From Escherichia phage vB_EcoM_G2285: 64,000 nucleotides of DNA. Positions 1,974 through 59,056 of this stretch are shown here, piece after piece. The notes beneath the pieces are model-generated. The model did no database searches. It saw only the letters and a list, made by a program, of their open reading frames with translations, and had not been told where the DNA came from. The stretch is from the sequence record MK327933.1; one strand, given 5' to 3'. A program made the position numbers and the translations under genes. Each line of letters begins with the position of its first letter. The first letter of the stretch is position 1.

Positions 1974-2786
1974 ATGATCAAAGAACAACTTTTGAAAGAA
2001 GCTCAGAACATCGAGACTTCAGTTGCTCTTAATAGTGTTTTCGAATCAGTAGAACTGTCTCCGGACGTTAAAGCTAATTTCAGCACTGTATTCGAAGCCA
2101 CCGTTAAGCAGGAAGCAGTCAAACTGGCTGAATCTCATATCAAAGCCATCGCCGAAAAAGCCGAAGAAGAAGTTGAAAAGGCTAAAGAAGATGCTGAAGA
2201 GAAAGCTGATAAAAAATTGGCTGAACAAGCTTCTAAATTCCTAGACCATCTTGCAAAAGAATGGCTCGCAGAAAACCAAATCGCAGTTGATAAAGGCATT
2301 AAAGCTGATTTGTTCGAATCCATGCTTGGTGGTCTGAAAGAACTGTTTGTTGAACATAACGTTGTTGTTCCAGAAGAATCTGTAGATGTTGTAGCAGAAA
2401 TGGAAGAAGAGCTGGCCGAACATAAAGAAGAAACCGCTCGTTTGTTCGAAGAAGTTACCAAACGTGATGCATATATCAATTACGTTCAGCGTGAAACCGC
2501 TATTAATGAAAGCGTAAAAGACCTGACTGAATCTCAGAAAGAAAAAGTTATTGGCCTGGTTGAAGGTATGGATTATTCTGACGCATTTGGTACTAAGTTA
2601 ACTGCTATTGTAGAAATGGTTAAAGGTTCTACTAAAGAAGAAGCCGCTATTACCGAAAGTATAAATACAGTTGACAATGACGCTGCCGGTCTTAATTTTG
2701 TTGCCGAAGCAGTTGACACTACCACAACTCAGGTAGAACAGAATTCTAATGTAAGTTTATATGCGAAAGTCGCATCTCGTTTCTAA
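1974..2786 (+). CDS. 22: Prohead core scaffold protein gp22
   Basis: 270 aa, acidic, coiled-coil-like; synteny. Confidence 0.8.
   Translation: MIKEQLLKEAQNIETSVALNSVFESVELSPDVKANFSTVFEATVKQEAVKLAESHIKAIAEKAEEEVEKAKEDAEEKADKKLAEQASKFLDHLAKEWLAENQIAVDKGIKADLFESMLGGLKELFVEHNVVVPEESVDVVAEMEEELAEHKEETARLFEEVTKRDAYINYVQRETAINESVKDLTESQKEKVIGLVEGMDYSDAFGTKLTAIVEMVKGSTKEEAAITESINTVDNDAAGLNFVAEAVDTTTTQVEQNSNVSLYAKVASRF
2660..2667 (+). promoter_or_regulatory. Late promoter TATAAATA inside the 3' end of gene 22 (P23-like)
   Basis: Exact TATAAATA about 140 nt upstream of the gene 23 start. Confidence 0.5.
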
Positions 2787-2803
2787 TTTAAAGGTTAACA
2801 CAA

Positions 2804-4372
2804 ATGACTACTATCAAAACTAAAGCTCAGCTCGTAGACAAATGGAAAGAACTGCTGGAAGGTGAAGGCCTGCCGGAAATCGCTAATAGCAAGCAGGCTA
2901 TTATCGCTAAAATCTTCGAAAACCAGGAAAAAGATTTCGAAGTATCCCCTGAATATAAAGACGAGAAAATCGCTCAGGCATTTGGTTCTTTCTTGACCGA
3001 AGCTGAAATTGGTGGTGACCATGGTTATAATGCTCAGAACATCGCAGCGGGTCAAACCTCTGGTGCAGTAACCCAAATTGGGCCGGCAGTTATGGGTATG
3101 GTTCGTCGTGCTATTCCTAATCTGATCGCTTTTGATATTTGTGGTGTTCAGCCTATGAACAGCCCTACCGGTCAGGTATTTGCTCTCCGTGCAGTATATG
3201 GTAAAGACCCTATCGCTGCCGGCGCTAAAGAAGCTTTCCATCCGATGTATGCTCCAGACGCGATGTTCTCTGGTCAGGGTGCTGCTAAGAAATTCCCAGC
3301 TCTGGCTGCTAGCACACAAACCACTGTAGGTGATATCTATACTCACTTCTTCCAGGAAACTGGTACTGTATATCTGCAAGCTTCTGTTCAAGTAACAATC
3401 GATGCTGGTGCGACTGATGCTGCTAAATTAGATGCCGAAGTTAAGAAACAAATGGAAGCTGGTGCACTGGTAGAAATCGCTGAAGGTATGGCTACTTCTA
3501 TCGCTGAACTCCAGGAAGGTTTCAACGGTTCTACCGATAACCCATGGAATGAAATGGGCTTCCGTATCGATAAACAAGTTATCGAAGCTAAATCTCGCCA
3601 GCTGAAAGCTGCTTACTCTATCGAATTAGCACAAGACCTCCGTGCAGTACACGGTATGGATGCTGACGCTGAACTGAGCGGTATTCTGGCTACAGAAATT
3701 ATGCTAGAAATCAACCGTGAAGTTGTTGATTGGATTAACTACTCGGCACAGGTTGGTAAATCTGGTATGACCCTGACTCCGGGTTCTAAAGCTGGTGTAT
3801 TTGACTTCCAGGACCCGATTGATATCCGTGGTGCTCGTTGGGCCGGTGAAAGCTTTAAATCTCTGTTGTTCCAGATTGATAAAGAAGCAGTTGAAATTGC
3901 TCGTCAAACCGGTCGTGGTGAAGGTAACTTCATTATCGCTTCCCGTAACGTAGTTAACGTACTGGCTTCAGTTGATACTGGTATTTCTTACGCTGCACAG
4001 GGTCTGGCTTCTGGTTTTAATACCGACACTACTAAGTCTGTATTTGCCGGTGTACTTGGTGGTAAATACCGCGTATACATCGACCAGTATGCTAAACAGG
4101 ATTACTTCACCGTTGGTTACAAAGGCGCTAACGAAATGGATGCAGGTATTTACTATGCTCCTTACGTTGCACTTACCCCACTGCGTGGTTCCGATCCTAA
4201 GAACTTCCAGCCGGTAATGGGCTTTAAAACTCGTTACGGTATCGGTGTTAACCCGTTTGCTGAAAGTTCCCTGCAGGCTCCAGGTGCTCGCATCCAGTCC
4301 GGTATGCCGTCTATCCTGAACAGCCTTGGTAAGAACGCTTACTTTAGACGTGTATATGTAAAAGGCATCTAA
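2804..4372 (+). CDS. 23: Major capsid protein gp23
   Basis: 522 aa (T4 gp23 521); sequence reads as gp23. Confidence 0.95.
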   Translation: MTTIKTKAQLVDKWKELLEGEGLPEIANSKQAIIAKIFENQEKDFEVSPEYKDEKIAQAFGSFLTEAEIGGDHGYNAQNIAAGQTSGAVTQIGPAVMGMVRRAIPNLIAFDICGVQPMNSPTGQVFALRAVYGKDPIAAGAKEAFHPMYAPDAMFSGQGAAKKFPALAASTQTTVGDIYTHFFQETGTVYLQASVQVTIDAGATDAAKLDAEVKKQMEAGALVEIAEGMATSIAELQEGFNGSTDNPWNEMGFRIDKQVIEAKSRQLKAAYSIELAQDLRAVHGMDADAELSGILATEIMLEINREVVDWINYSAQVGKSGMTLTPGSKAGVFDFQDPIDIRGARWAGESFKSLLFQIDKEAVEIARQTGRGEGNFIIASRNVVNVLASVDTGISYAAQGLASGFNTDTTKSVFAGVLGGKYRVYIDQYAKQDYFTVGYKGANEMDAGIYYAPYVALTPLRGSDPKNFQPVMGFKTRYGIGVNPFAESSLQAPGARIQSGMPSILNSLGKNAYFRRVYVKGI

Positions 4373-4424: not shown

Positions 4425-4694
4425 TTATTTCTGTGCAATTTCGATGTAAGTTTTCAAAATATTTTGCCAATTAGGCATACCTTCTTGGACATATGCTGGA
4501 GAACAGTCTTTGTTTTTGAATGATGCAAGTTTATCAGTGGCCCAATAACCTTTAGCTCGAGCTTCAGAATCAACTTTCATCCATACTTTGTTGAAGGCGT
4601 TACCATTAACTTTTGCACCATATTTTTCTACTAACTTAACCGCTTCAGCTTCCAGAACTTTTAAAGTATCTCTTAAGAAACGTGCTTTAGTCAT
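4425..4694 (-). CDS. Hypothetical early protein, 89 aa, at the locus where T4 carries segD
   Basis: ATG at 4692-4694 preceded by GAGGAG; early-type promoter just upstream on the same strand; no recognisable motif. Confidence 0.55.
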   Translation of the reverse strand: MTKARFLRDTLKVLEAEAVKLVEKYGAKVNGNAFNKVWMKVDSEARAKGYWATDKLASFKNKDCSPAYVQEGMPNWQNILKTYIEIAQK

Positions 4695-4715
4695 TTTGTT
4701 TACTCCTCTGTAGTT

Positions 4716-4760
4716 GATAAGTCTATAGTATCACATACCAAATACGTTGTAAACAATCTT
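4716..4760 (-). promoter_or_regulatory. T4 early-type promoter (GTTTAC -35, TACTAT-like -10) for the 89-aa ORF
   Basis: Minus strand reads GTTTACAACGTATTTGGTATGTGATACTAT. Confidence 0.5.
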
Positions 4761-4768
4761 TATAAATA
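4761..4768 (+). promoter_or_regulatory. Late promoter TATAAATA for gene 24
   Basis: Exact TATAAATA 28 nt upstream of the gene 24 ATG. Confidence 0.6.
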
Positions 4769-4795
4769 ATCTATATCACATAAGGAAAAAATGCA

Positions 4796-6079
4796 ATGAG
4801 TAAAATCCAAAAATTATTGCGTGAATCTACAACGTCTACTAGCAACTCAATTGGTCGCCCAAATCTCGTTGCTTTGACTCGCGCTACGACTAAATTAATA
4901 TATTCTGACATTGTAGCAACACAAAGAACTAATCAACCTGTTGCTGCTTTTTATGGTATCAAATATCTTAACCCAGACAATGAATTTACATTTAAAACTG
5001 GTGCTACTTATGCTGGCGAAGTTGGATATGTAGACCGAGAAAAAATTACTGAACTCACAGAAGAATCAAAAGTCACACTAAATAAAGGTGATTTTTTCAA
5101 ATATAATAATATCGTTTATAAGGTGTTAGAAGATACACCATTTGCAGATATTCGAGAAAGTGATCTAGAATTAGCTCTTCAGATTGCAGTCGTTCATTTA
5201 AAGGTACGGTTATTTTCAGATGCAGCGGTAACAAGCAAATTTGAAAGCTCTGATAGCGAAATTTCTGATGCAAGATTCCAGATTAATAAATGGCAAACTT
5301 CAGTCAAATCTCGTAAACTTAAAACCGGCCTCACGGTTGAATTAGCGCAAGATTTGGAAGCGAATGGATTTGATGCCCCTAACTTCTTAGAGGATTTGCT
5401 TGCTACTGAAATGGCTGATGAAATTAATAAAGATATTCTTCAGTCTTTAATTACTGTATCGAAACGTTATAAAGTTACTGGAATTACTGACACCGGATTT
5501 ATTGACTTGAGCTATGCATCCGCTCCAGAAGCAGGTCGTTCATTATATCGAATGGTGTGTGAAATGGTATCACACATTCAAAAAGAGACAACTTATACTG
5601 CAACGTTTTGTGTAGCCTCAGCTCGTGCAGCTGCTATTCTTGCTGCTTCTGGTTGGTTAAAACATAAGCCAGAAGATGACAAGTATCTTTCACAAAATGC
5701 TTATGGATTCTTGGCAAATGGATTACCTCTTTACTGCGATACCAACAGTCCATTAGATTATGTTATTGTGGGTGTTGTAGAAAATATCGGCGAAAAAGAA
5801 ATTGTAGGGTCCATCTTTTATGCTCCATACACTGAAGGAGTAGATTTAGATGACCCGGAACATGTCGGTGCTTTTAAAGTTGTAGTTGATCCAGAAAGCT
5901 TGCAACCGTCTATCGGATTATTGGTTAGATATGCTTTATCAGCAAATCCTTACACAGTAGCAAAAGATGAAAAAGAAGCGAGAATAATTGATGGCGGGGA
6001 CATGGATAAAATGGCAGGACGTTCAGACTTGTCTGTTTTACTCGGTGTTAAGCTACCAAAAATTATCATTGATGAATAA
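4796..6079 (+). CDS. 24: Capsid vertex protein gp24
   Basis: 427 aa (T4 gp24 427); gp23-like fold signature. Confidence 0.9.
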   Translation: MSKIQKLLRESTTSTSNSIGRPNLVALTRATTKLIYSDIVATQRTNQPVAAFYGIKYLNPDNEFTFKTGATYAGEVGYVDREKITELTEESKVTLNKGDFFKYNNIVYKVLEDTPFADIRESDLELALQIAVVHLKVRLFSDAAVTSKFESSDSEISDARFQINKWQTSVKSRKLKTGLTVELAQDLEANGFDAPNFLEDLLATEMADEINKDILQSLITVSKRYKVTGITDTGFIDLSYASAPEAGRSLYRMVCEMVSHIQKETTYTATFCVASARAAAILAASGWLKHKPEDDKYLSQNAYGFLANGLPLYCDTNSPLDYVIVGVVENIGEKEIVGSIFYAPYTEGVDLDDPEHVGAFKVVVDPESLQPSIGLLVRYALSANPYTVAKDEKEARIIDGGDMDKMAGRSDLSVLLGVKLPKIIIDE

Positions 6080-6085
6080 AACAAA

Positions 6086-6106
6086 GGGACCTTACGGTCC
6101 CTTTTT
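6086..6106. terminator. Bidirectional hairpin terminator between convergent genes 24 and rnlB
   Basis: gggacc-ttac-ggtccc flanked by an A-run and a T-run. Confidence 0.7.
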
Positions 6107-6108
6107 CG

Positions 6109-7107
6109 TTATGATACTAATTCAATCCATGCAGGACGCAGAACATCTTGCACCATTCGGACTAATTCTTTCTTAACAAGATTCGGATTATCAGATGATG
6201 TTAATACAATACCTTCGCGAGAAGTTTCTTCCAGAATATCTTGAACAGTCAATCCCATCACTTTGCCAAAATCTTTTGGCGTTACATCCCCAATCTTAGA
6301 AATCACATTATTAACACGATTTAATGTAACATAGCAAGCTAGAACATCAAGCAAGTTTTTGTCAATTTCGGTTAATGGAACCTGAGTTTTAATAGGCTTA
6401 TCAGACTTTTTCTTTTCACTGAATTTAGAGTTCTTGCACTTAATAGCTACACGAGTACCGTTTGGCAGCCATTTAGGGAAACAAGGCTTCAGAACATAAC
6501 CTTCTGCTGTATTATTGCCAATAACATTAGCATCAAATACGCAATTATTTGCTTCGACAAGGTCTTCTGACGCAGTAGCATTATAAGCGGCTAAGACGGA
6601 ATCAAGGTCGTTTGGAATCGTGATAAGAGAATCAAATGTTCCACGTCCAAGCATTGGTGCCATTTTAAAACCGAATTCATTACAGAAATCTTGCATTTCG
6701 TAATCGGTCAAATACGTATTATCACCACTTTCTGTATTGATAAGGATATCGAACACATAAAAATCTTTTTCACCGTAGTCAACACCTTTCTGGATTCCAC
6801 CACCAGCGAATTCACCAAAGACCTGATATGATACAGCTCGAGAACTACCCATTACTTCTTGAACGTTTTTAATAGCCTTATCATACTTCTTGAGTACAAT
6901 TTCATAACCATAAAAATCTTCTGCTGGAAGAATAGGGCCTGTGCGCTTGGCGCATGTGACGTTGTCACGTTCAATTATTAACGAGAAGTTGGTCCCATGG
7001 ATTTTCTCACGTGCTACCCAAACACCAGTAGACAAACCATTAGTGTAGAGTTTTTCAATAAACTTAGAGTTATAGTGGTTTTCAAGACTGCTGTATTTCT
7101 TAAACAT
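6109..7107 (-). CDS. rnlB: RNA ligase 2 (Rnl2)
   Basis: 332 aa; nucleotidyltransferase motif I KIHGTN; reads as T4 Rnl2. Confidence 0.9.
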
Positions 7108-7226
7108 AAATCACCATTATAAATAATAATATCAAAATAATTAGCAGAGACTCTATCTCTGGCCCAATGTTTAATTTGAATGGATAGAACCTAGATTCAT
7201 TATACCATCAAAAAATGTAAAGCATA

Positions 7227-51892: not shown

Positions 51893-54800
51893 ATGGCTAC
51901 ATTAAAACAGATACAATTTAAAAGAAGCAAAGTGGCAGGTGCACGTCCTGCTGCTTCAGTATTAGCCGAAGGTGAATTGGCTATAAACTTAAAAGATAGA
52001 ACACTTTTTACTAAAGATGACCTCGGTAATATTATTAGCCTAGGCTTTGCTAAGGGCGGGGATATTAACGGTAATGTAACCCAAAATGGTGGTTATTTAC
52101 AGAACGGTACATATAATCTCAATGGAAATCAGTTTGTTTATGCAGGAAAATATATTGAATTTTTACCTAAAATAGCTGGTAATGGCGCTTGGGTAAATCA
52201 ACACCTAAATAAAGCTCCTATCTTTACAGATTTAAGTTCAACTACTGCTGTTTCAGAATACCATCCGCTGATTAAACAACGCTATAAAGATGGAACTTTT
52301 TCTGCTGGCACATTAGTAAACGAAGGTAGTTTTAAATTCCATTATATTGATGAAACCGGGACTTCAAAATACTGGACTTTTAATAGAAATGGTAATTTCA
52401 TCGTAGATTCTGGCAATATTGAAGTTCGTACCGGTAATATTTCTGCTTCAGGCAATATTAACTCCGCTAATGGTATTATCACCGGGCCTGAAATTGTTAC
52501 CAAAAATATTAATTTCAGTACAAAAACATTTGTCGCTAACGCCAACATCGGGTATGATTGGGTTTCTTTACCTACCTGGGTTTATAATCCGCCAGCTGAT
52601 GGTTCTGATAATACTACTAACGGTTTAAACTATTTGCGTAAATTGCGTGCATCAAGTGCATCAAGTATTTTCCATGAAATTGCTGATTGTCGAAAAGGCA
52701 AGCCGCAAGAAATTTCTTGGTGGACTGGTGTAGGTCCTTCGTCTTTCCAATGGGCGTTTGATACCTCTGGGCGTATTACCGCAGGTAAATCTATTTCAGT
52801 AGGTCTTCCTGATAACGGGGCAAATGGACGTTATCCTTTAGATTCTGCCATTTCTATTGGTATTGCAATTGGTGATAATGACACCGGTATTAAATGGGTC
52901 CGCGACGGTGTTATTGATTTCATGGCTAACGGTATTTCATCCGCTACCATTTTGAATAACGGTATTAACAGCACTAAGAAATTGATGGTCGGTTATAGCC
53001 GCGATTCTGGTACTACTTGGGATTTTCCTAATAATAATCAGGCAATGTTTACAGCAAGAACTGATGTTGATGGAAATAATAACGGTGATGGACAAACTCA
53101 TATCGGTTATAGCAGCAATGCCAAGATGTATCACTATTTCCGTGGTACAGGTCGTATGGCTGTTGGTATGGCAGAAGGTTTAATTGTTGAGCCAGGTATT
53201 TTAGATATTAAAACTGGTTCAAATTCATTAAATTTACGTGCTGATGGAACTATTTCTTCTATTCAAAGAATTAAATTTGATAACGGGGTACTTCTTACCG
53301 GGGCTAGAGCTGACGGTATTCAACTTGATGCGCCTACATCAGTAGATGGCACTAAAACTATACTGTGGGGTGCTGGTACTCGCGCAGGTCAGAATAAAAA
53401 CTATATATCTATTAAAGCGTGGGGTAATTCATTTAATGCCACTGGTGATAAATCTCGTGAAACCGTTTTTGAAGTATCAGATTCACAAGGTTACCATTTT
53501 TATTCTCAGCGAGTTGCTCCTGGTGCAGGTTCTACTGTCGGACCTATTCAATTCCGAGTTAATGGCGGTTTATTAACTTCAGGTAGTATTGTTGCTTCCG
53601 GTTCTATTACAACTGAATCTTCTTTGAGTGTTAATAATGGCATGTCAGTAAACGGCCAAGCTAAATTCGGCGGAACAGCAAACGCATTGAGAATTTGGAA
53701 CGCTGAATATGGCGCTATTTTCCGTCGTTCAGAAACAGCATTGCACATTATTCCTACCCTTAAAGACCAAGGAGAAAATGGTGAAATAGGTAATCTTCGT
53801 CCATTGAGCATCGCACTTCATAACGGTATGGTACAAATGCGTCATTCTGTCACGTTAGGCGATGATGGTAGAGGTGGCAATATGATTACTGTGGACAACG
53901 ATAACAAACGTGTTGTTGTTGCTAGTAATAGTCGTATTTCTCCTAATTACCGTATGCAGATAGGACATTCCGCTTATATTGATGCTGAATGTACTAATAC
54001 TGTTCGACCGGCTGGTGCAGGTTCATTTGCTTCCCAGAATAATGAAGACGTTCGTGCCCCGTTCTATATGAATATTGATAGAACAGATACAAGCGCTTAT
54101 GTTCCTATTGTGAAACAAAGATACGTTCAAAATAATAGTTGTTATTCTATTGGTACTTTAATTAATGGTGGTAACTTTAGAGTTCATTATCATGAAGGTG
54201 GAGACGGTGGTTCGACTGGTGCTGTTATAAAGGATCATGGATGGGAATTTAATAAAAACGGTGATTTTTATTCTCCTGGTAAATTAGGCGCTGGTAATGT
54301 TCGTATTGGTACTGATGGTAACATCACTGGCGGCACTGGTAATTTTGCTAACTTGAATACCACAATAAATAACCTTAAGACGGATATTGTGTCGAGTTAC
54401 CCAATTGGTGCTCCGATTCCTTGGCCTACTGATACACCTCCTGACGGTTACGCTATTATGGAAGGTCAGACCTTTGATAAGTCTGCATATCCAAAGTTAG
54501 CTGTTGCATATCCTAGCGGTGTTATTCCAGATATGCGCGGGCAAACTATCAAGGGTAAACCTAGTGGACGAGCCGTGTTAAGTGCAGAAGCTGATGGTAT
54601 TAAGTCTCATAGCCATAGTGCATCTGCTTCAAGTACTGACTTAGGCACTAAAACCACATCGTCGTTTGATTACGGCACTAAAACCACGAATAACACCGGG
54701 GCGCATACGCACAGTGTGAGCGGTACAGCCGCAAGTGCCGGAAACCATACTCATAGTGTCACAGGCGCATCAGCAGAAAGACGGTACACACCAAATGGGT

Positions 54801-55039
54801 CAACACATGAGGTAGTGGCTGCGGTCAGGGTGAATACAAGTGCTGCAGGAGCGCACACTCATAGTGTCAGCGGCACAGCTGCATCTGCAGGTGCTCACGC
54901 ACATACTGTCGGTATTGGTGCTCATACGCACTCTGTTGCGATTGGCTCACATGGACACACCATCACCGTTAACGCTGCTGGTAACGCGGAAAACACGGTT
55001 AAAAACATTGCTTTTAACTATATCGTTCGTTTAGCATAA
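51893..55039 (+). CDS. 37: Long tail fibre distal subunit gp37 (receptor-binding tip)
   Basis: 1048 aa; conserved N-terminus; C-terminal His-rich HxH repeat block. Confidence 0.9.
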
Positions 55040-55044
55040 GGAGA

Positions 55045-55058
55045 GGGGCTTCGGCCCC
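55045..55058 (+). terminator. Intrinsic terminator after gene 37
   Basis: ggggc-ttcg-gcccc followed by ttttt. Confidence 0.7.
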
Positions 55059-55068
55059 TTTTTATAAT

Positions 55069-55620
55069 ATGAAACTCTATCACTATTATTTTGACACTAA
55101 AGAATTTTACAAAGAAGAAAATTATAAACCATTAAAAGGCGTAGGATTTCCGGCTCATTCGACACCAAAAAAACCTTTAGACCCTAAAGAAGGCTATGCT
55201 GTTTTATTTGATGAACGCGAACAAGAATGGGTATATGTTGAAGACCATCGTGGAAAAACAGTATGGACTTATGATAAGCAAAAAATTGTTATTGACACTC
55301 CGGGTGCTCTTCAAAATGTTACTACGGAAGAACCTGGTGAATTTGACATTTGGACCGACGACGGGTGGAAGGAAGATGAAGCATATAAACGCGTAGTTCA
55401 ACGTGATAAGAAAATTCATGAACTCTATAAATTATTCAGTGTTTTAAGTTCTCTTATTGACGCAGAGGTTGCTAATAGAGAAGAAAAGCGAAAATTTAAA
55501 GAGCTCAAAAAATTCTTTGCCCTTTTAGAAAAACACGAACATCTTGGCGGTGAATTCCCTAAATTCCCTGACCTTGAAAACAAATCTATTGTCAAAACGA
55601 TTATAAATATCTTTAAGTAA
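55069..55620 (+). CDS. 38: Tail fibre assembly chaperone gp38 (T4 type)
   Basis: 183 aa (T4 gp38 183). Confidence 0.85.
   Translation: MKLYHYYFDTKEFYKEENYKPLKGVGFPAHSTPKKPLDPKEGYAVLFDEREQEWVYVEDHRGKTVWTYDKQKIVIDTPGALQNVTTEEPGEFDIWTDDGWKEDEAYKRVVQRDKKIHELYKLFSVLSSLIDAEVANREEKRKFKELKKFFALLEKHEHLGGEFPKFPDLENKSIVKTIINIFK
55602..55609 (+). promoter_or_regulatory. Late promoter TATAAATA for holin t
   Basis: Exact motif inside the 3' end of gene 38, 20 nt upstream of t. Confidence 0.55.
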
Positions 55621-55629
55621 GGAGGTATT

Positions 55630-56289
55630 ATGGCAACACCAAAAGTATCATTTTCGCCTAGTGATATTCTATTTGGGTTGCTAGATCGTATTTTCAAAGA
55701 TAACGCTACTGGAAAGGTTTTAATGTCCCGAGTAGCGGTAATTATTCTTTTGTTCCTAATGGCACTAATATGGTACAAAGGAAGTATTTTGCTGGATTAT
55801 TATGTAAGAGCTAAGTATGATACTTATACTGAAATAATCCAAAAAGAACGAGCTTTACGTTTTGAATCTGCGGCTCTAGAACAACTGCAAATAGTTCATA
55901 TCTCATCTGGTGCAGATTTTAGTGCTGTGTATTCTTTCAGACCTAAAAACTTAAATTATTTTGTCGACCTTATAGCTTATGAAGGCAAACTACCTAGCAC
56001 AATTTCTGAAAAGTCCCTTGGCGGATTCCCAGTGGATAAAACGGCCAATGAATATATAATTCATTTAAGTGGCCGTCATTTCTCATCTAAATCTGAATTT
56101 GCATTTTTGCCTACAAAATCTAAGACTGCCGAACTTTCTTATATGTATAGTTGTCCATACTTTAATTTGGATAACATCTATGCCGGAACTGTGACGATGT
56201 ATTGGTATAAGGGGAGTAATATACTTGAGGAAGATCGCTTAGCGGCTATATGCAACCAAGCGATCCGAATACTAGGAAGGGCTAAATAA
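55630..56289 (+). CDS. t: Holin T
   Basis: 219 aa (T4 T 218); single N-terminal TM helix and large periplasmic domain. Confidence 0.9.
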   Translation: MATPKVSFSPSDILFGLLDRIFKDNATGKVLMSRVAVIILLFLMALIWYKGSILLDYYVRAKYDTYTEIIQKERALRFESAALEQLQIVHISSGADFSAVYSFRPKNLNYFVDLIAYEGKLPSTISEKSLGGFPVDKTANEYIIHLSGRHFSSKSEFAFLPTKSKTAELSYMYSCPYFNLDNIYAGTVTMYWYKGSNILEEDRLAAICNQAIRILGRAK

Positions 56290-56562
56290 TTAGTTGTTAG
56301 AATACATCGCTAAATGACGATAAATATTTTCAAAACCTTCATTGAATTCACTAATCAGTGTTTTCTTTTCTTCGGCAGTTAAATTTGTAATTAGTTTTCT
56401 GAACGAATTCTGATTTAGCTGCCGACCATCTTTTTTAATTCCAATCTCATTCAAGAATCCGATGAAACTTGCTCGGTCTTCAACAATATCTTCCCTAGAG
56501 AATTTAATCAAAATAGAAGCAATAGTAATAATTTCACGTACGATTTCAATATCTTTATTCAT
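56290..56562 (-). CDS. asiA: Anti-sigma-70 factor AsiA
   Basis: 90 aa; reads as T4 AsiA. Confidence 0.9.
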   Translation of the reverse strand: MNKDIEIVREIITIASILIKFSREDIVEDRASFIGFLNEIGIKKDGRQLNQNSFRKLITNLTAEEKKTLISEFNEGFENIYRHLAMYSNN

Positions 56563-56608
56563 AACGTTTTATTCATTCCACTTAGTTGATATGGATATAG
56601 TACCATTA

Positions 56609-56824
56609 TCAGTGTTGATTGTAAACAGCTTTTTCTACGCTTTTAACGTAATTGGTATAGTCTTCCTGTTCGTACGAGTGTAAGGCTAAGAACAGAGCTA
56701 ATAGTTCATTATAGACTAAAGCCTCACGCTCACGTTCGGCCTCTACTACGTTCTGAAGATTATGGCTCATATTGTTCCTTATAACTATCAATGTAGTCCT
56801 GTATGTCAAAGAATGATATTTCAT
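56609..56824 (-). CDS. Hypothetical protein (start uncertain)
   Basis: 71-aa ORF overlapping the next ORF. Confidence 0.3.
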   Translation of the reverse strand: MKYHSLTYRTTLIVIRNNMSHNLQNVVEAEREREALVYNELLALFLALHSYEQEDYTNYVKSVEKAVYNQH

Positions 56825-57146
56825 ATTCTAGGACATTAAGAGCCCGTTCTTCAGTATAGTCAGAACCAAAGACGATAGTGATTTCACCGGGTTTAGAATG
56901 ACTGAAATCAACACTAAACTCAAGTCGAGAGCAGACTTCATCTTCCATATCTATGATAACACTACGATACACTTCTCGGTTAATCTGATAAAGCTCTGCA
57001 AGTTCTTCACAACGAATAACAAGTTCAGTGGCAGGATTTTCTTTGATTTTAGTAAGCATAGTCTTTACCCTTATGTTTTTGTTTACGTTTAGATTGAAGT
57101 TCTGATTTCTTCTTGTCCTTATGGACGGAAGCCTTATTGAAATCAT
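56760..57146 (-). CDS. Hypothetical protein (real start probably internal, near 57059)
   Basis: 128-aa ORF. Confidence 0.4.
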   Translation of the reverse strand: MISIRLPSIRTRRNQNFNLNVNKNIRVKTMLTKIKENPATELVIRCEELAELYQINREVYRSVIIDMEDEVCSRLEFSVDFSHSKPGEITIVFGSDYTEERALNVLEYEISFFDIQDYIDSYKEQYEP

Positions 57147-57361
57147 GTTTTGCTACAAGATTGTTCATAATGCTTTATAACCTCGTTTAAACATTTACTA
57201 GTGAAAGAAAACTTTTTAGCCACAGAACATTCGATAATGTGCTCTTTCAAATCTTTAGAGTCGGTATATCCCATCTCAGTAATAAAGTGGCGAATTAAAG
57301 CTTTATTCTTATCATTAACAGAATTAAAATAATCTGCTTTAGAATCAATTATTCTCATCAT
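57143..57361 (-). CDS. Hypothetical protein
   Basis: 72-aa ORF. Confidence 0.4.
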   Translation of the reverse strand: MMRIIDSKADYFNSVNDKNKALIRHFITEMGYTDSKDLKEHIIECSVAKKFSFTSKCLNEVIKHYEQSCSKT

Positions 57362-57626
57362 CTAATTTCCTTAATTGATATTGCAACGAGCTAATAATTT
57401 CTTCGTTCATTTTAATATACATGTCACGCAAGAAAGGTTTTAACCCATCACGAATAATTGCTAACGTATCACCTTTACATAAATTAACCAAATAAGGATG
57501 GTCTAAAGCGTCCCAACCAGGCTGATTAGCATACATACCATAGTTTTCTTCCATCATATGATTAAGACGTTTGATATCTTGGATACGTGATTCAATAGCA
57601 TCTTTCTGGAGTTGTTTAATATTCAT
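57345..57626 (-). CDS. Hypothetical early protein; size and position compatible with Arn but unverified
   Basis: 93 aa in the asiA-motA island; assignment is weak inference. Confidence 0.3.
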   Translation of the reverse strand: MNIKQLQKDAIESRIQDIKRLNHMMEENYGMYANQPGWDALDHPYLVNLCKGDTLAIIRDGLKPFLRDMYIKMNEEIISSLQYQLRKLDDENN

Positions 57627-58087
57627 TAATAAAGGTCCTCTGAATAAAGTTCTTTCTCACTTCCGCCACGTTCAATACGTACCTGTCCAGCATACGTTGC
57701 AATAATCATTGCTTCTTCGCGAGTCCAGTAATTAGAGTATTGGTCGATAAAGCCTTGGTCGTCACCACAAACTTGTTGTGAGACTAATTGAGGACCAACT
57801 ATATCAAGTACTTCAGCCATATCTTTAGAGTAATGACGAACTCCAGGAATAACCAGAGTTCCACCACTCTTCAATTTAAACCTATTAGCTGCACATACTA
57901 TAACACGTTGAACTTTTTGGTCATTATTCCAATAGCATGTTTGCCAACAGATTTCAGGAACTTCATTCATTATATCATCAGCAGAATAATTATAACCGTA
58001 GGACTGGAATTTTTCTGCTAGACTTTCAGGAGTCTCACGAGACAAGGCCAAATCTAATAGCTCTAAACGTTCTTTAAATGATTTCAT
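57626..58087 (-). CDS. Hypothetical protein, 153 aa
   Basis: Coupled ORF with several cysteines; no motif recognised. Confidence 0.5.
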
Positions 58088-58413
58088 TTAAACCATTCCT
58101 TAATACGTTGCCAAATAGATTTTTGTGCTTGTTTATTTACACCAATCGAACGAATAACCGGTTGTGACTGCTGATATTCTTTATAATCTTCTTTATAGAT
58201 TTCGTAAGCTGCATCAACAAATGAACTGATCGCTGCCATGTAGTTTTTACGAAGGCCGAATGGTGCGTCATTATTTTCACGAATAACCATATATTGGCCT
58301 GCTTTAATCTTTACAATTGTCCCTAAATAAGCCCCGTGGTACCAAATATCCCATCCTTCCTGAGTAGGTTCTGCACATTTACGAAGTTCGTTAATAATAT
58401 TCAGCTTATTCAT
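58084..58413 (-). CDS. Hypothetical protein (motA.1 position)
   Basis: 109-aa ORF. Confidence 0.5.
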
Positions 58414-58423
58414 TATGTATTCC

Positions 58424-59056
58424 TCACAGTACGTTAGTTACAAGGGTAATGATTTCTTTGGACACATTAGGGAAGTCAATGTAAGTATATTTACCACCGA
58501 TCTTAATCTTAACATCATTTTCAAGAGAAGTAAACAGCTTTGATTCAGTTTCTGACATGTTATATGCAAATATTCTAAGACAACCATCTCGACGAATTTC
58601 GATCTGACGAATACCTAGAACTCGTTTTGCAAATCGAACTTCCAAGTTACTACGGTTTTCACCAATTTCTTTAACTTCAACTTTATCTTTAATATTTTCA
58701 AAAACAAAGTTTGCTAGTTCATGCATTTCAGGAGTAACTCCACGTGCTTTTCTAGTGTTACGTTTCTGAAGAAGTTCTGGAGCATTTTCTTGGGCAAAGA
58801 GGTCCGCCGCTTTTTGGATAATATCCATTGCTTCGCCTGTTGCTATAAGTCCATCACCGGATTTTTCGACTAAACCTTTCTTAATCAATACACCAATGTT
58901 AGAGTTAACAACCGATGCATTGTATTCCGCTTCCAGAGCTTCACGGACATTGGCAGCAGTAGTGAAGTTGTTCTTAATGATATAAACCATTATTGCAGCA
59001 GTTTTTTCATTCAGAGCGTTTTCAGAAGCTTTGATGATGTAAGTAACTTTAGACAT
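58424..59056 (-). CDS. motA: Middle-transcription activator MotA
   Basis: 210 aa (T4 MotA 211); N-terminus MSKVTYIIKAS matches. Confidence 0.9.
   Translation of the reverse strand: MSKVTYIIKASENALNEKTAAIMVYIIKNNFTTAANVREALEAEYNASVVNSNIGVLIKKGLVEKSGDGLIATGEAMDIIQKAADLFAQENAPELLQKRNTRKARGVTPEMHELANFVFENIKDKVEVKEIGENRSNLEVRFAKRVLGIRQIEIRRDGCLRIFAYNMSETESKLFTSLENDVKIKIGGKYTYIDFPNVSKEIITLVTNVL

Follow-up and report, generated by a model that had tools for sequence, protein, structure and literature searches.

Gene 37 of Escherichia phage vB_EcoM_G2285 (record MK327933.1), which encodes gp37, the distal subunit of the long tail fibre, was analysed in a 64,000-nt stretch of the phage genome, hereafter the window. 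The best explanation for the C-terminal end of this protein, and one that we consider very probable, is a receptor-binding needle of the T4 type in which about 340 nt were recently captured from the side-tail-fibre gene (stf) of a lambdoid prophage, and in which the apex was changed either afterwards or in an unsampled donor. The captured segment would comprise six of the seven HxH motifs of the needle together with the whole tip, and both crossovers would lie in short stretches that are conserved between gp37 and stf. We assign the source phage to the genus Mosigvirus (RB69-like, T4-type) because the DNA flanking gene 37 is 95-98% identical to that of the Mosigvirus phages vB_EcoM_G2469, JM10/JM17 and AV116. 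The features that this reading builds on are the following.

51893..55039, + strand: gene 37, 1048 aa (open reading frame (ORF); synteny with T4; alignment to T4 gp37; Pfam families Collar, PF07484, and Phage_fiber, PF03335)
54407..54550, + strand: phage tail collar domain, aa 839-886, native T4-like (PF07484, E 2.6e-11, 43.7 bits, cutoff 24)
54608..54616, + strand: HxH motif 1, H906-S-H908, outside the putatively imported tract (aligns to T4 H883/H885; codons unlike the Stf gene)
54637..54687, + strand: two copies of the 10-aa unit (D/Y)(L/Y)GTKTT(S/N)(S/N)F (repeat search; 21-nt cores 86% identical; 5' crossover between the copies)
54650..54996, + strand (minimum 54661-54988): tract probably imported from a prophage stf gene, aa 920-1035, with HxH motifs 2-7, both stem halves and the tip
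54746..54754, + strand: HxH motif 3, H952/H954, predicted iron site adjoining the tip, equivalent to T4 H929/H931 (residue mapping; PMC6957217)
54755..54835, + strand: tip subdomain, aa 955-981, equivalent to T4 932-959 (2XGF alignment; domain limits from PMC6957217)
54776..54829, + strand: remodelled apex, aa 962-979 (11 aa and 14 nt changed relative to the prophage allele, all nonsynonymous; codon table)
54896..54958, + strand: HxH motifs 5, 6 and 7 (aa 1002, 1011 and 1020), descending stem (motif positions; T4 mapping)
54997..55039, + strand: final 13 codons plus stop codon, native T4-like DNA (no difference from T4 and F26; 10 nt differ from Stf)

The C-terminal needle of gp37 and its stf-like tract

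A first-pass annotation of this DNA had pointed to HxH repeats in the C-terminal ~140 aa of gp37, and seven such motifs were indeed found in the last 143 aa, starting at residues 906 (HSH, nt 54608), 938 (HTH, 54704), 952 (HTH, 54746), 988 (HTH, 54854), 1002 (HAH, 54896), 1011 (HTH, 54923) and 1020 (HGH, 54950). The last 150 aa contain 15 of the 29 His residues of the protein, and shuffling the last 143 residues yielded a mean of 1.46 HxH motifs, with seven or more in 3 of 100,000 shuffles. When the C-terminal 240 aa were compared with PDB using phmmer, they matched 2XGF, which covers T4 gp37 residues 785-1026, with an E-value of 1.5e-105 and a single 1-aa gap (query 40-279 against 2xgf_A 2-242). 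The seven motifs pair one-to-one with T4 positions 883, 915, 929, 966, 980, 989 and 998, and the two proteins share the spacing 32/14/~36/14/9/9. In the T4 needle, seven irons are coordinated along the length by HxH motifs (PMC6957217), so the earlier statements that the equivalent T4 His residues coordinate iron and that this region is the receptor-binding tip hold. The T4 stem consists of residues 882-931 and 960-1009, and the tip subdomain, residues 932-959, bears the residues that contact lipopolysaccharide (LPS) and OmpC (PMC6957217). The needle is a six-stranded antiparallel β structure of three intertwined chains (PMC9659904); the chain therefore goes up, makes the tip and comes back. 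By homology to 2XGF, on which our structural statements on G2285 gp37 rest, the end of this protein is taken to be the C-terminal receptor-binding needle of a T4-type gp37. Three gp37 chains would intertwine, each ascending the stem, forming the tip at aa 955-981 and descending, and at every one of the seven HxH motifs, His residues of all three chains would coordinate a single iron atom, so that the needle is stapled by seven metal sites. The paper describing 2XGF reportedly found two His per chain and a six-ligand geometry at each iron. The gene 37 C-termini of the closest relatives, G2469 and JM17, owe an eighth HxH motif to an additional VGIGAHTH unit and have a tip cassette of 49 aa versus 29 aa; thus, the number of putative iron sites is not fixed within Mosigvirus.

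In a multiple nucleotide alignment with stf genes and T4-like genes, the affinity of the needle DNA switches twice. On the 5' side, the sequence departs from Stf for the last time at 54649 and from the Tequatrovirus phage vB_Eco_F26 for the first time at 54661; on the 3' side, it last departs from F26 at 54988, is identical to T4 and F26 from 54989 and first departs from Stf again at 54997. Between these switches (54650-54996), gp37 DNA equals Stf except for 15 nt when compared with stf of phage 2H10, which corresponds to 95.7% nt identity over 347 nt, and there are no synonymous differences over about 115 codons. Over the 72 nt that encode aa 934-957, identity is 100% to three of the stf genes and 46-51% to T4-like genes. 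The GC content is 53.3% in the tract, 39.3% in the rest of gene 37 and 34.6% in gene 38. The 5' crossover lies in AAAACCACATC, inside the GTKTT repeat, and the 3' crossover in GAAAACAC (GNAENT); the sequences common to both parental types at these junctions are 11 nt and 8 nt long (relative to F26), and the reading frame is intact through both. The amino acids encoded by 54997-55039, beyond the 3' junction, are the same in T4, F26 and Stf. At the level of sequence, the sharp boundaries, the zero synonymous differences and the jump in GC content show that this tract was captured from stf, a feature that the first-pass reading of the needle had missed. Two further observations concern the DNA around the 5' junction: positions 54500-54660, comprising the end of the collar and the first HxH motif, are almost nt-identical to F26, and the 10-aa GTKTT unit is present in three copies in G2469 and JM17, so the copy number of the lower stem varies between Mosigvirus alleles.

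The transfer ran from prophage to phage, because the tract matches temperate-phage records, E. coli prophages and small IMG/VR contigs, and barely any T4-like phage. A megablast search with the tract returned 21 phage records, 19 of which are of temperate-phage size (26-50 kb) or short fragments. Five temperate-phage records match over the full length at 95.1-95.7% (2H10 twice, PhiR29_1/2 and Salmonella phage SPF_0923) and a further 14, 26-50-kb phages and a fragment of 1.7 kb, match in the stems alone; T4-like phages account for just two of the 21, AV116 and AV118, which match over 56 nt at 87.5%. Similarly, tblastn with the 75-aa tip region gave one T4-like match (45%), and the best matches (80%) were the tail-fibre genes of the lambdoid phages 2H10 and PhiR29_1/2 and of Salmonella phage SPF_0923. 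Of 5426 complete E. coli genomes, 752 (~14%) have 80% or more of the cassette length, annotated as stfR or as a prophage tail fibre. Among the best 80 IMG/VR loci, almost all are on contigs shorter than 60 kb and none on a contig longer than 118 kb; 29 of these loci are 88-90% identical, all on contigs of at most 54 kb. The Stf N-terminus and shaft and the lambdoid gene context (J, lom, stf, tfa) were not found in G2285: the N-terminus and shaft of gp37 are T4-like, the Pfam matches are Collar and Phage_fiber only, and the surrounding genes are T4-like, in contrast to those of 2H10. Since the needle DNA is of Stf type and the N-terminus, shaft and context are T4-like, the protein is a chimera and not an Stf.

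Some of the donor-type loci have features of their own. In phage 2H10 (locus 5321-5911) and E. coli 2014C-3061 (locus 2523-3113), a gene of the invertase/recombinase family follows stf-tfa on the opposite strand, an arrangement that may be reminiscent of invertible tail-fibre segments. In the 35-kb record of SPF_0923 (locus 4651-7165), the manganese-transporter genes sitB, sitC and sitD stand directly after the tail-fibre assembly gene, and this record probably includes host chromosome flanking a prophage.

The remodelled apex and receptor specificity

The differences between the tract and its prophage counterpart are not spread evenly. One of the 15 differences from 2H10 stf is at 54683 (T931 versus S) and the other 14 are at 54777-54829; the probability of finding 14 of 15 differences in 53 of 347 nt is ~5e-11 (binomial). 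The prophage sequence at aa 962-979 is VSQWSQNGSVHKVVSAAS, from which G2285 differs at 11 of 18 residues. All changed codons of the tract are nonsynonymous (12, and 0 synonymous), compared with 2 nonsynonymous and 24 synonymous in the flanks relative to the same stf gene (Fisher 3e-8). Because ~74% of the tract sites are nonsynonymous, the rough neutral expectation for 14 nonsynonymous changes out of 14 is 0.735^14, or ~0.013. The seven unchanged codons of the apex are nt-identical to the prophage cassette, and the apex is therefore this cassette with point substitutions and not a second, divergent cassette. The prophage tip is itself nearly invariant, its variants differing by at most one residue in IMG/VR and in protein clusters. 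A 96-nt tip query retrieved 751 E. coli genomes at 80% or more of its length, with all records but one in the 80-90% identity band and the 15 best rows at 85.4-86.5%. The G2285 apex was absent from 50,697 phage records (tblastn with the 75-aa tip region); in a collection of 5.8 billion protein clusters searched with 159 aa, the best identity (91%) was to the common prophage allele, and a protein search with 76 aa of the tip returned only short prophage fragments.

These data are consistent with a rewriting of the 18-residue apex after the capture, by 14 exclusively nonsynonymous substitutions, or alternatively with an unsampled donor that already had the 14 substitutions. Tentatively, and with somewhat more doubt than conviction, we consider that the captured apex went through an intense adaptive burst, as there are 14 nonsynonymous changes and no neutral change elsewhere in the 347 nt, and that this resulted in a receptor specificity unique in public data. 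A conserved scaffold with a variable insert is the known design of tip cassettes; in the Stf proteins of E. coli prophages, the same His-box frames enclose at least 12 alternative tip cassettes, which are 28-49 aa long.

Only one of the 11 T4 residues that contact LPS and OmpC is kept in G2285 gp37 (S947). The changed apex positions map to T4 939-957, including the equivalents of G940, G942 and G943, in an alignment that is approximate given the very low identity in this region; in T4, these three glycines line a distal cavity that binds LPS glucose and OmpC (PMC6957217). The G2285 fibre would thus be without the exact specificity of T4, and would probably differ also from the prophage allele. 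Nothing relevant on the receptor of the 2H10/PhiR29-type Stf came up in a literature search. Neither T4 (OmpC/LPS) nor the closest Mosigvirus relatives predict the receptor of G2285, because the part that sets specificity is a prophage Stf cassette with a unique apex.

The chimeric needle also has to be folded. The gp38 of G2285 is 67% identical to T4 gp38 and only 32% to the donor-type Tfa, so the needle must be folded by a T4-type chaperone, and in our proposal the resident gp38 would do this. Such folding is plausible because interchangeability of lambda Tfa and gp38 has been reported (Montag 1989); as far as the account in PMC9659904 goes, the receptor part of T4 gp37 is functionally exchangeable for lambda stf, and gp38 for tfa.

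Other origins considered for the allele and for the repeated block

Several points weigh against a natural capture followed by apex evolution as proposed here. Exact 38-39-nt patterns spanning the junctions gave no matches in IMG/VR for either the 5' or the 3' junction, and none in JGI metagenomes for the 5' junction. Degenerate DNA patterns for 13-aa and 11-aa tip peptides had no matches in IMG/VR, GTDB genomes and JGI metagenomes, and an exact-protein look-up of G2285 gp37 returned no record. The recombinant allele is thus a singleton in the collections searched, and consequently an assembly chimera and a laboratory origin each keep a small probability. For the 14 apex changes, an origin in the phage and an origin in an unsampled donor are both compatible with the data. 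The residue-level mapping of the tip to T4 depends on an alignment with almost no identity there. Furthermore, iron binding, trimerisation, chaperone compatibility and receptor are all assigned to gp37 by homology, and would hold to the extent that it does. An AlphaFold2 monomer model of gp37 aa 809-1048 built on a 42-sequence alignment was unusable (predicted local distance difference test score 53.5, predicted TM-score 0.19), which is expected for an obligate intertwined, metal-bound trimer.

If the allele were an assembly artefact, reads from a stf gene of a prophage in the propagation host would have been joined to gene 37 at conserved stretches. In favour of this, host DNA is present in phage lysates, the donor cassette is widespread in E. 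coli, and the allele is a singleton in every collection searched. However, the frame is intact at both junctions, the common stretches of 11 nt and 8 nt are shorter than the usual assembly k-mers, and the 14 apex substitutions occur in none of the 752 E. coli genomes, so that the tract is not the common host allele. We therefore regard an artefact as quite unlikely. A laboratory product, by an engineered tip swap, directed evolution of the apex or both, deserves similarly little credence. The confinement of 14 all-nonsynonymous substitutions to a receptor-contact loop with clean flanks does resemble targeted mutagenesis, and T4/lambda tip swaps have been made experimentally (Montag 1989, to the extent described in PMC9659904). 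Against this, we noted neither scars nor tags nor restriction sites at the junctions, natural mosaicism extends to the remainder of gp37, and the changed codons are not of the NNK type (GAA, AGA, ACA and CCA end in A), a substitution pattern on which an NNK library was rejected.

Still less probable, and in our view very unlikely, is that the similarity to stf reflects old, vertically inherited homology between T4 and lambda fibres with no recent transfer. The last ~215 aa are shared by T4 gp37 and lambda Stf (PMC9659904), and amino-acid conservation is high across the whole family. Such homology predicts saturated synonymous sites, as are found in the collar region just upstream (aa 834-905, 54392-54607), which has an nt identity of 93% to Tequatrovirus F26 and of 67% to stf, with 31% at third positions. 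The tract behaves otherwise, with its absence of synonymous differences, its sharp boundaries and a GC jump of 14 points, and other T4-like phages are only 46-73% nt-identical in segments of it.

A different origin had been proposed for a peptide of 15 aa in the needle, namely that its repetition implies a local duplication of DNA. The peptide does occur twice, in exact copies, and all three peptide strings quoted at that time are present in the protein.

54698..54742, + strand: repeated 15-aa block, copy 1, aa 936-950, ascending stem, includes HxH motif 2 (100% nt-identical to Stf genes; PF03335 14-aa repeat match at aa 933-946)
54848..54892, + strand: repeated 15-aa block, copy 2, aa 986-1000, descending stem, includes HxH motif 4 (nt-identical to 2H10 stf)

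The two 45-nt copies share 34 of 45 nt, with 14 of 15 matches at each of codon positions 1 and 2 and 6 of 15 at position 3, and Tandem Repeats Finder reported nothing on 54300-55100. Both copies are already present, with identical DNA, in the stf genes of lambdoid prophages. Each side of the stem holds two HxH motifs 14 residues apart, as in T4, and this spacing equals the repeat period of PF03335; the two blocks frame the tip, one on the ascending and one on the descending side. Because third positions match at only 6 of 15, the blocks are not a recent duplication, and the repetition does not imply a local DNA duplication that can still be recognised today. It is thus highly improbable that gene 37 was lengthened in its host-range region by a recent duplication, even if one additional VGIGAHTH unit and one additional GTK repeat are found in the alleles of G2469 and JM17. 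T4 reportedly gains a wider host range from duplications between its His boxes (Tetart 1996), which we also counted in favour of a duplication. Besides the divergence of the copies, their presence in prophage stf genes, the two-plus-two layout shared with T4 and the lack of a tandem array, the length itself speaks against it: the C-terminal region is 1 aa shorter than in T4, and the extra length lies in the shaft. The lengths given earlier, 1048 aa for this gp37 and 1026 aa for T4 gp37, are both correct, and from them a variant host-range region had been deduced. In a full-length alignment with T4 gp37, the indels that add up to the net +22 aa lie in the N-terminal part and the shaft. The tip does deserve to be called a variant, but with a needle 1 aa shorter than that of T4 and the additional residues elsewhere, its variation cannot validly be read from gene length. 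Of the two findings that had been named in advance as speaking against a variant tip in an alignment to T4, a length difference lying elsewhere was observed and a tip identical to that of T4 was not.

Finally, targeted diversification of the apex, for example by a diversity-generating retroelement (DGR), can practically be discounted despite the extreme localisation of the mutations in a receptor-binding loop, as the substitutions are not adenine-specific in either direction and the 64-kb window contains no second copy or template repeat of the tract (best secondary matches of at most 14 nt); a DGR was rejected on these two grounds, no search aimed at a reverse transcriptase having been made.

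Gene context, mosaicism and comparison with known tail fibres

The gene order around gene 37 is that of T4 (34-35-36-37-38-t), with ORF sizes nearly as in T4: gp34 has 1291 aa, gp35 375 aa, gp36 220 aa (matching Pfam PF03903, Phage_T4_gp36), gp38 183 aa and the holin t 219 aa. Downstream of gene 37, positions 55040-58500 are 98% nt-identical to Mosigvirus G2469. Two features were located in this region.

55045..55063, + strand: stem-loop GGGGC-TTCG-GCCCC followed by a T run (TTTTT), between genes 37 and 38 (read from the sequence)
55069..55620, + strand: gene 38, T4-type tail-fibre assembly chaperone, 183 aa (PF02413; 67% identical to T4 gp38 and 32% to 2H10 Tfa)

The site homologous to the stem-loop in G2469 carries the annotation "putative terminator"; a terminator scan did not call the stem-loop at 55045-55063. 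Adhesins of the T2/T6 type have a gp38 of ~260 aa with glycine-rich motifs that caps gp37, and the gp38 found here is instead the 183-aa chaperone of T4 type. An antisense ORF of 87 aa inside gene 37 (53548-53811, - strand) is presumably spurious.

Gene 37 itself is matched only patchily by any phage record (coverage 65-93%, identity 78-87%). The shaft (51893-54300) is heavily mosaic, and BLAST comparison with T4, G2469, JM17 and F26 leaves large gaps in it, for example at ~52080-52616 and ~53810-54290. The segment encoding aa 834-905, which as stated is close to F26, is 79% identical to Mosigvirus G2469, and gene 38 downstream is 98% Mosigvirus-like. Because the collar segment is F26-like and gp38 Mosigvirus-like, these values suggest a second exchange inside gene 37, which would have taken place between genera.

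Typing by gene length or by similarity to T4 would mis-type the G2285 fibre. More generally, a tract with zero synonymous differences is direct evidence for a continuing use of the tail-fibre pool of host prophages by virulent T4-like phages. The two in-frame crossovers and the retained gp38 mark junctions that would be naturally tolerated in chimeric T4-type fibres, provided that the chimera functions as its sequence suggests. If the adaptive burst is true, the allele represents a natural snapshot of a tip capture followed by retuning, and the swap points at aa 920-923 and 1033-1035 would be usable for engineering. In themselves, the iron needle with its HxH motifs, the mosaicism of T4 and lambda fibres and the presence of variable tip cassettes within conserved frames have been known for decades. 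The C-terminus of T4 g37 and g38 are of lambda-like phage origin, and in T4/lambda tail-fibre exchanges the crossovers lie at conserved motifs (PMC3157838); the last ~215 aa constitute a receptor-binding family common to T4 and lambda, with a conserved chaperone (PMC9659904).

Compared with the T4 gp37 needle, that of G2285 has the same architecture (240 aa versus 241 aa, with one gap), seven HxH motifs in equivalent places and a collar domain; its extreme C-terminus is identical, and the gp38 encoded downstream is of the T4 type. It differs in that its stem and tip are of the prophage Stf type, with an amino-acid identity to T4 of 46% in the ascending stem and ~6% in the tip. Compared with lambdoid Stf (2H10, PhiR29_1/2 and proteins annotated as stfR, with the tip SVTGASAVSQWSQNGSVHKVVSAASVNTS), the tract is 95.1-95.7% nt-identical over 347 nt and the protein identical to it outside aa 931 and aa 962-979. 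However, the remainder of the G2285 protein is a T4-type gp37 and lacks the N-terminal part of Stf. Identity falls to 67% in the collar DNA, 11 of the 18 apex residues are different, and the chaperone is gp38 and not Tfa (32% identity).

The T4-lambda hybrids of Montag, Schwarz and Henning (1989), in the form in which PMC9659904 presents them, result from an exchange of the kind seen here, and these two gene families are the partners there too. In contrast to those hybrids, the G2285 allele has no sign of engineering, only ~340 nt of its gene 37 are exchanged, and the phage keeps its resident gp38 instead of taking tfa. The shuffling and duplication of His boxes (Tetart et al. 1996, 1998) resembles the G2285 locus in the variable tip cassettes of 28-49 aa between conserved His-box frames and in crossovers that lie in conserved sequence (cf. 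PMC3157838). In G2285, by contrast, the crossovers are in the GTKTT repeat and in GNAENT, neither of which is part of a His box, and have produced a replacement and not a duplication. The G2285 locus is thus a further, and unusually fresh, case of T4/lambda tail-fibre mosaicism in Mosigvirus, with an apex private to this phage.

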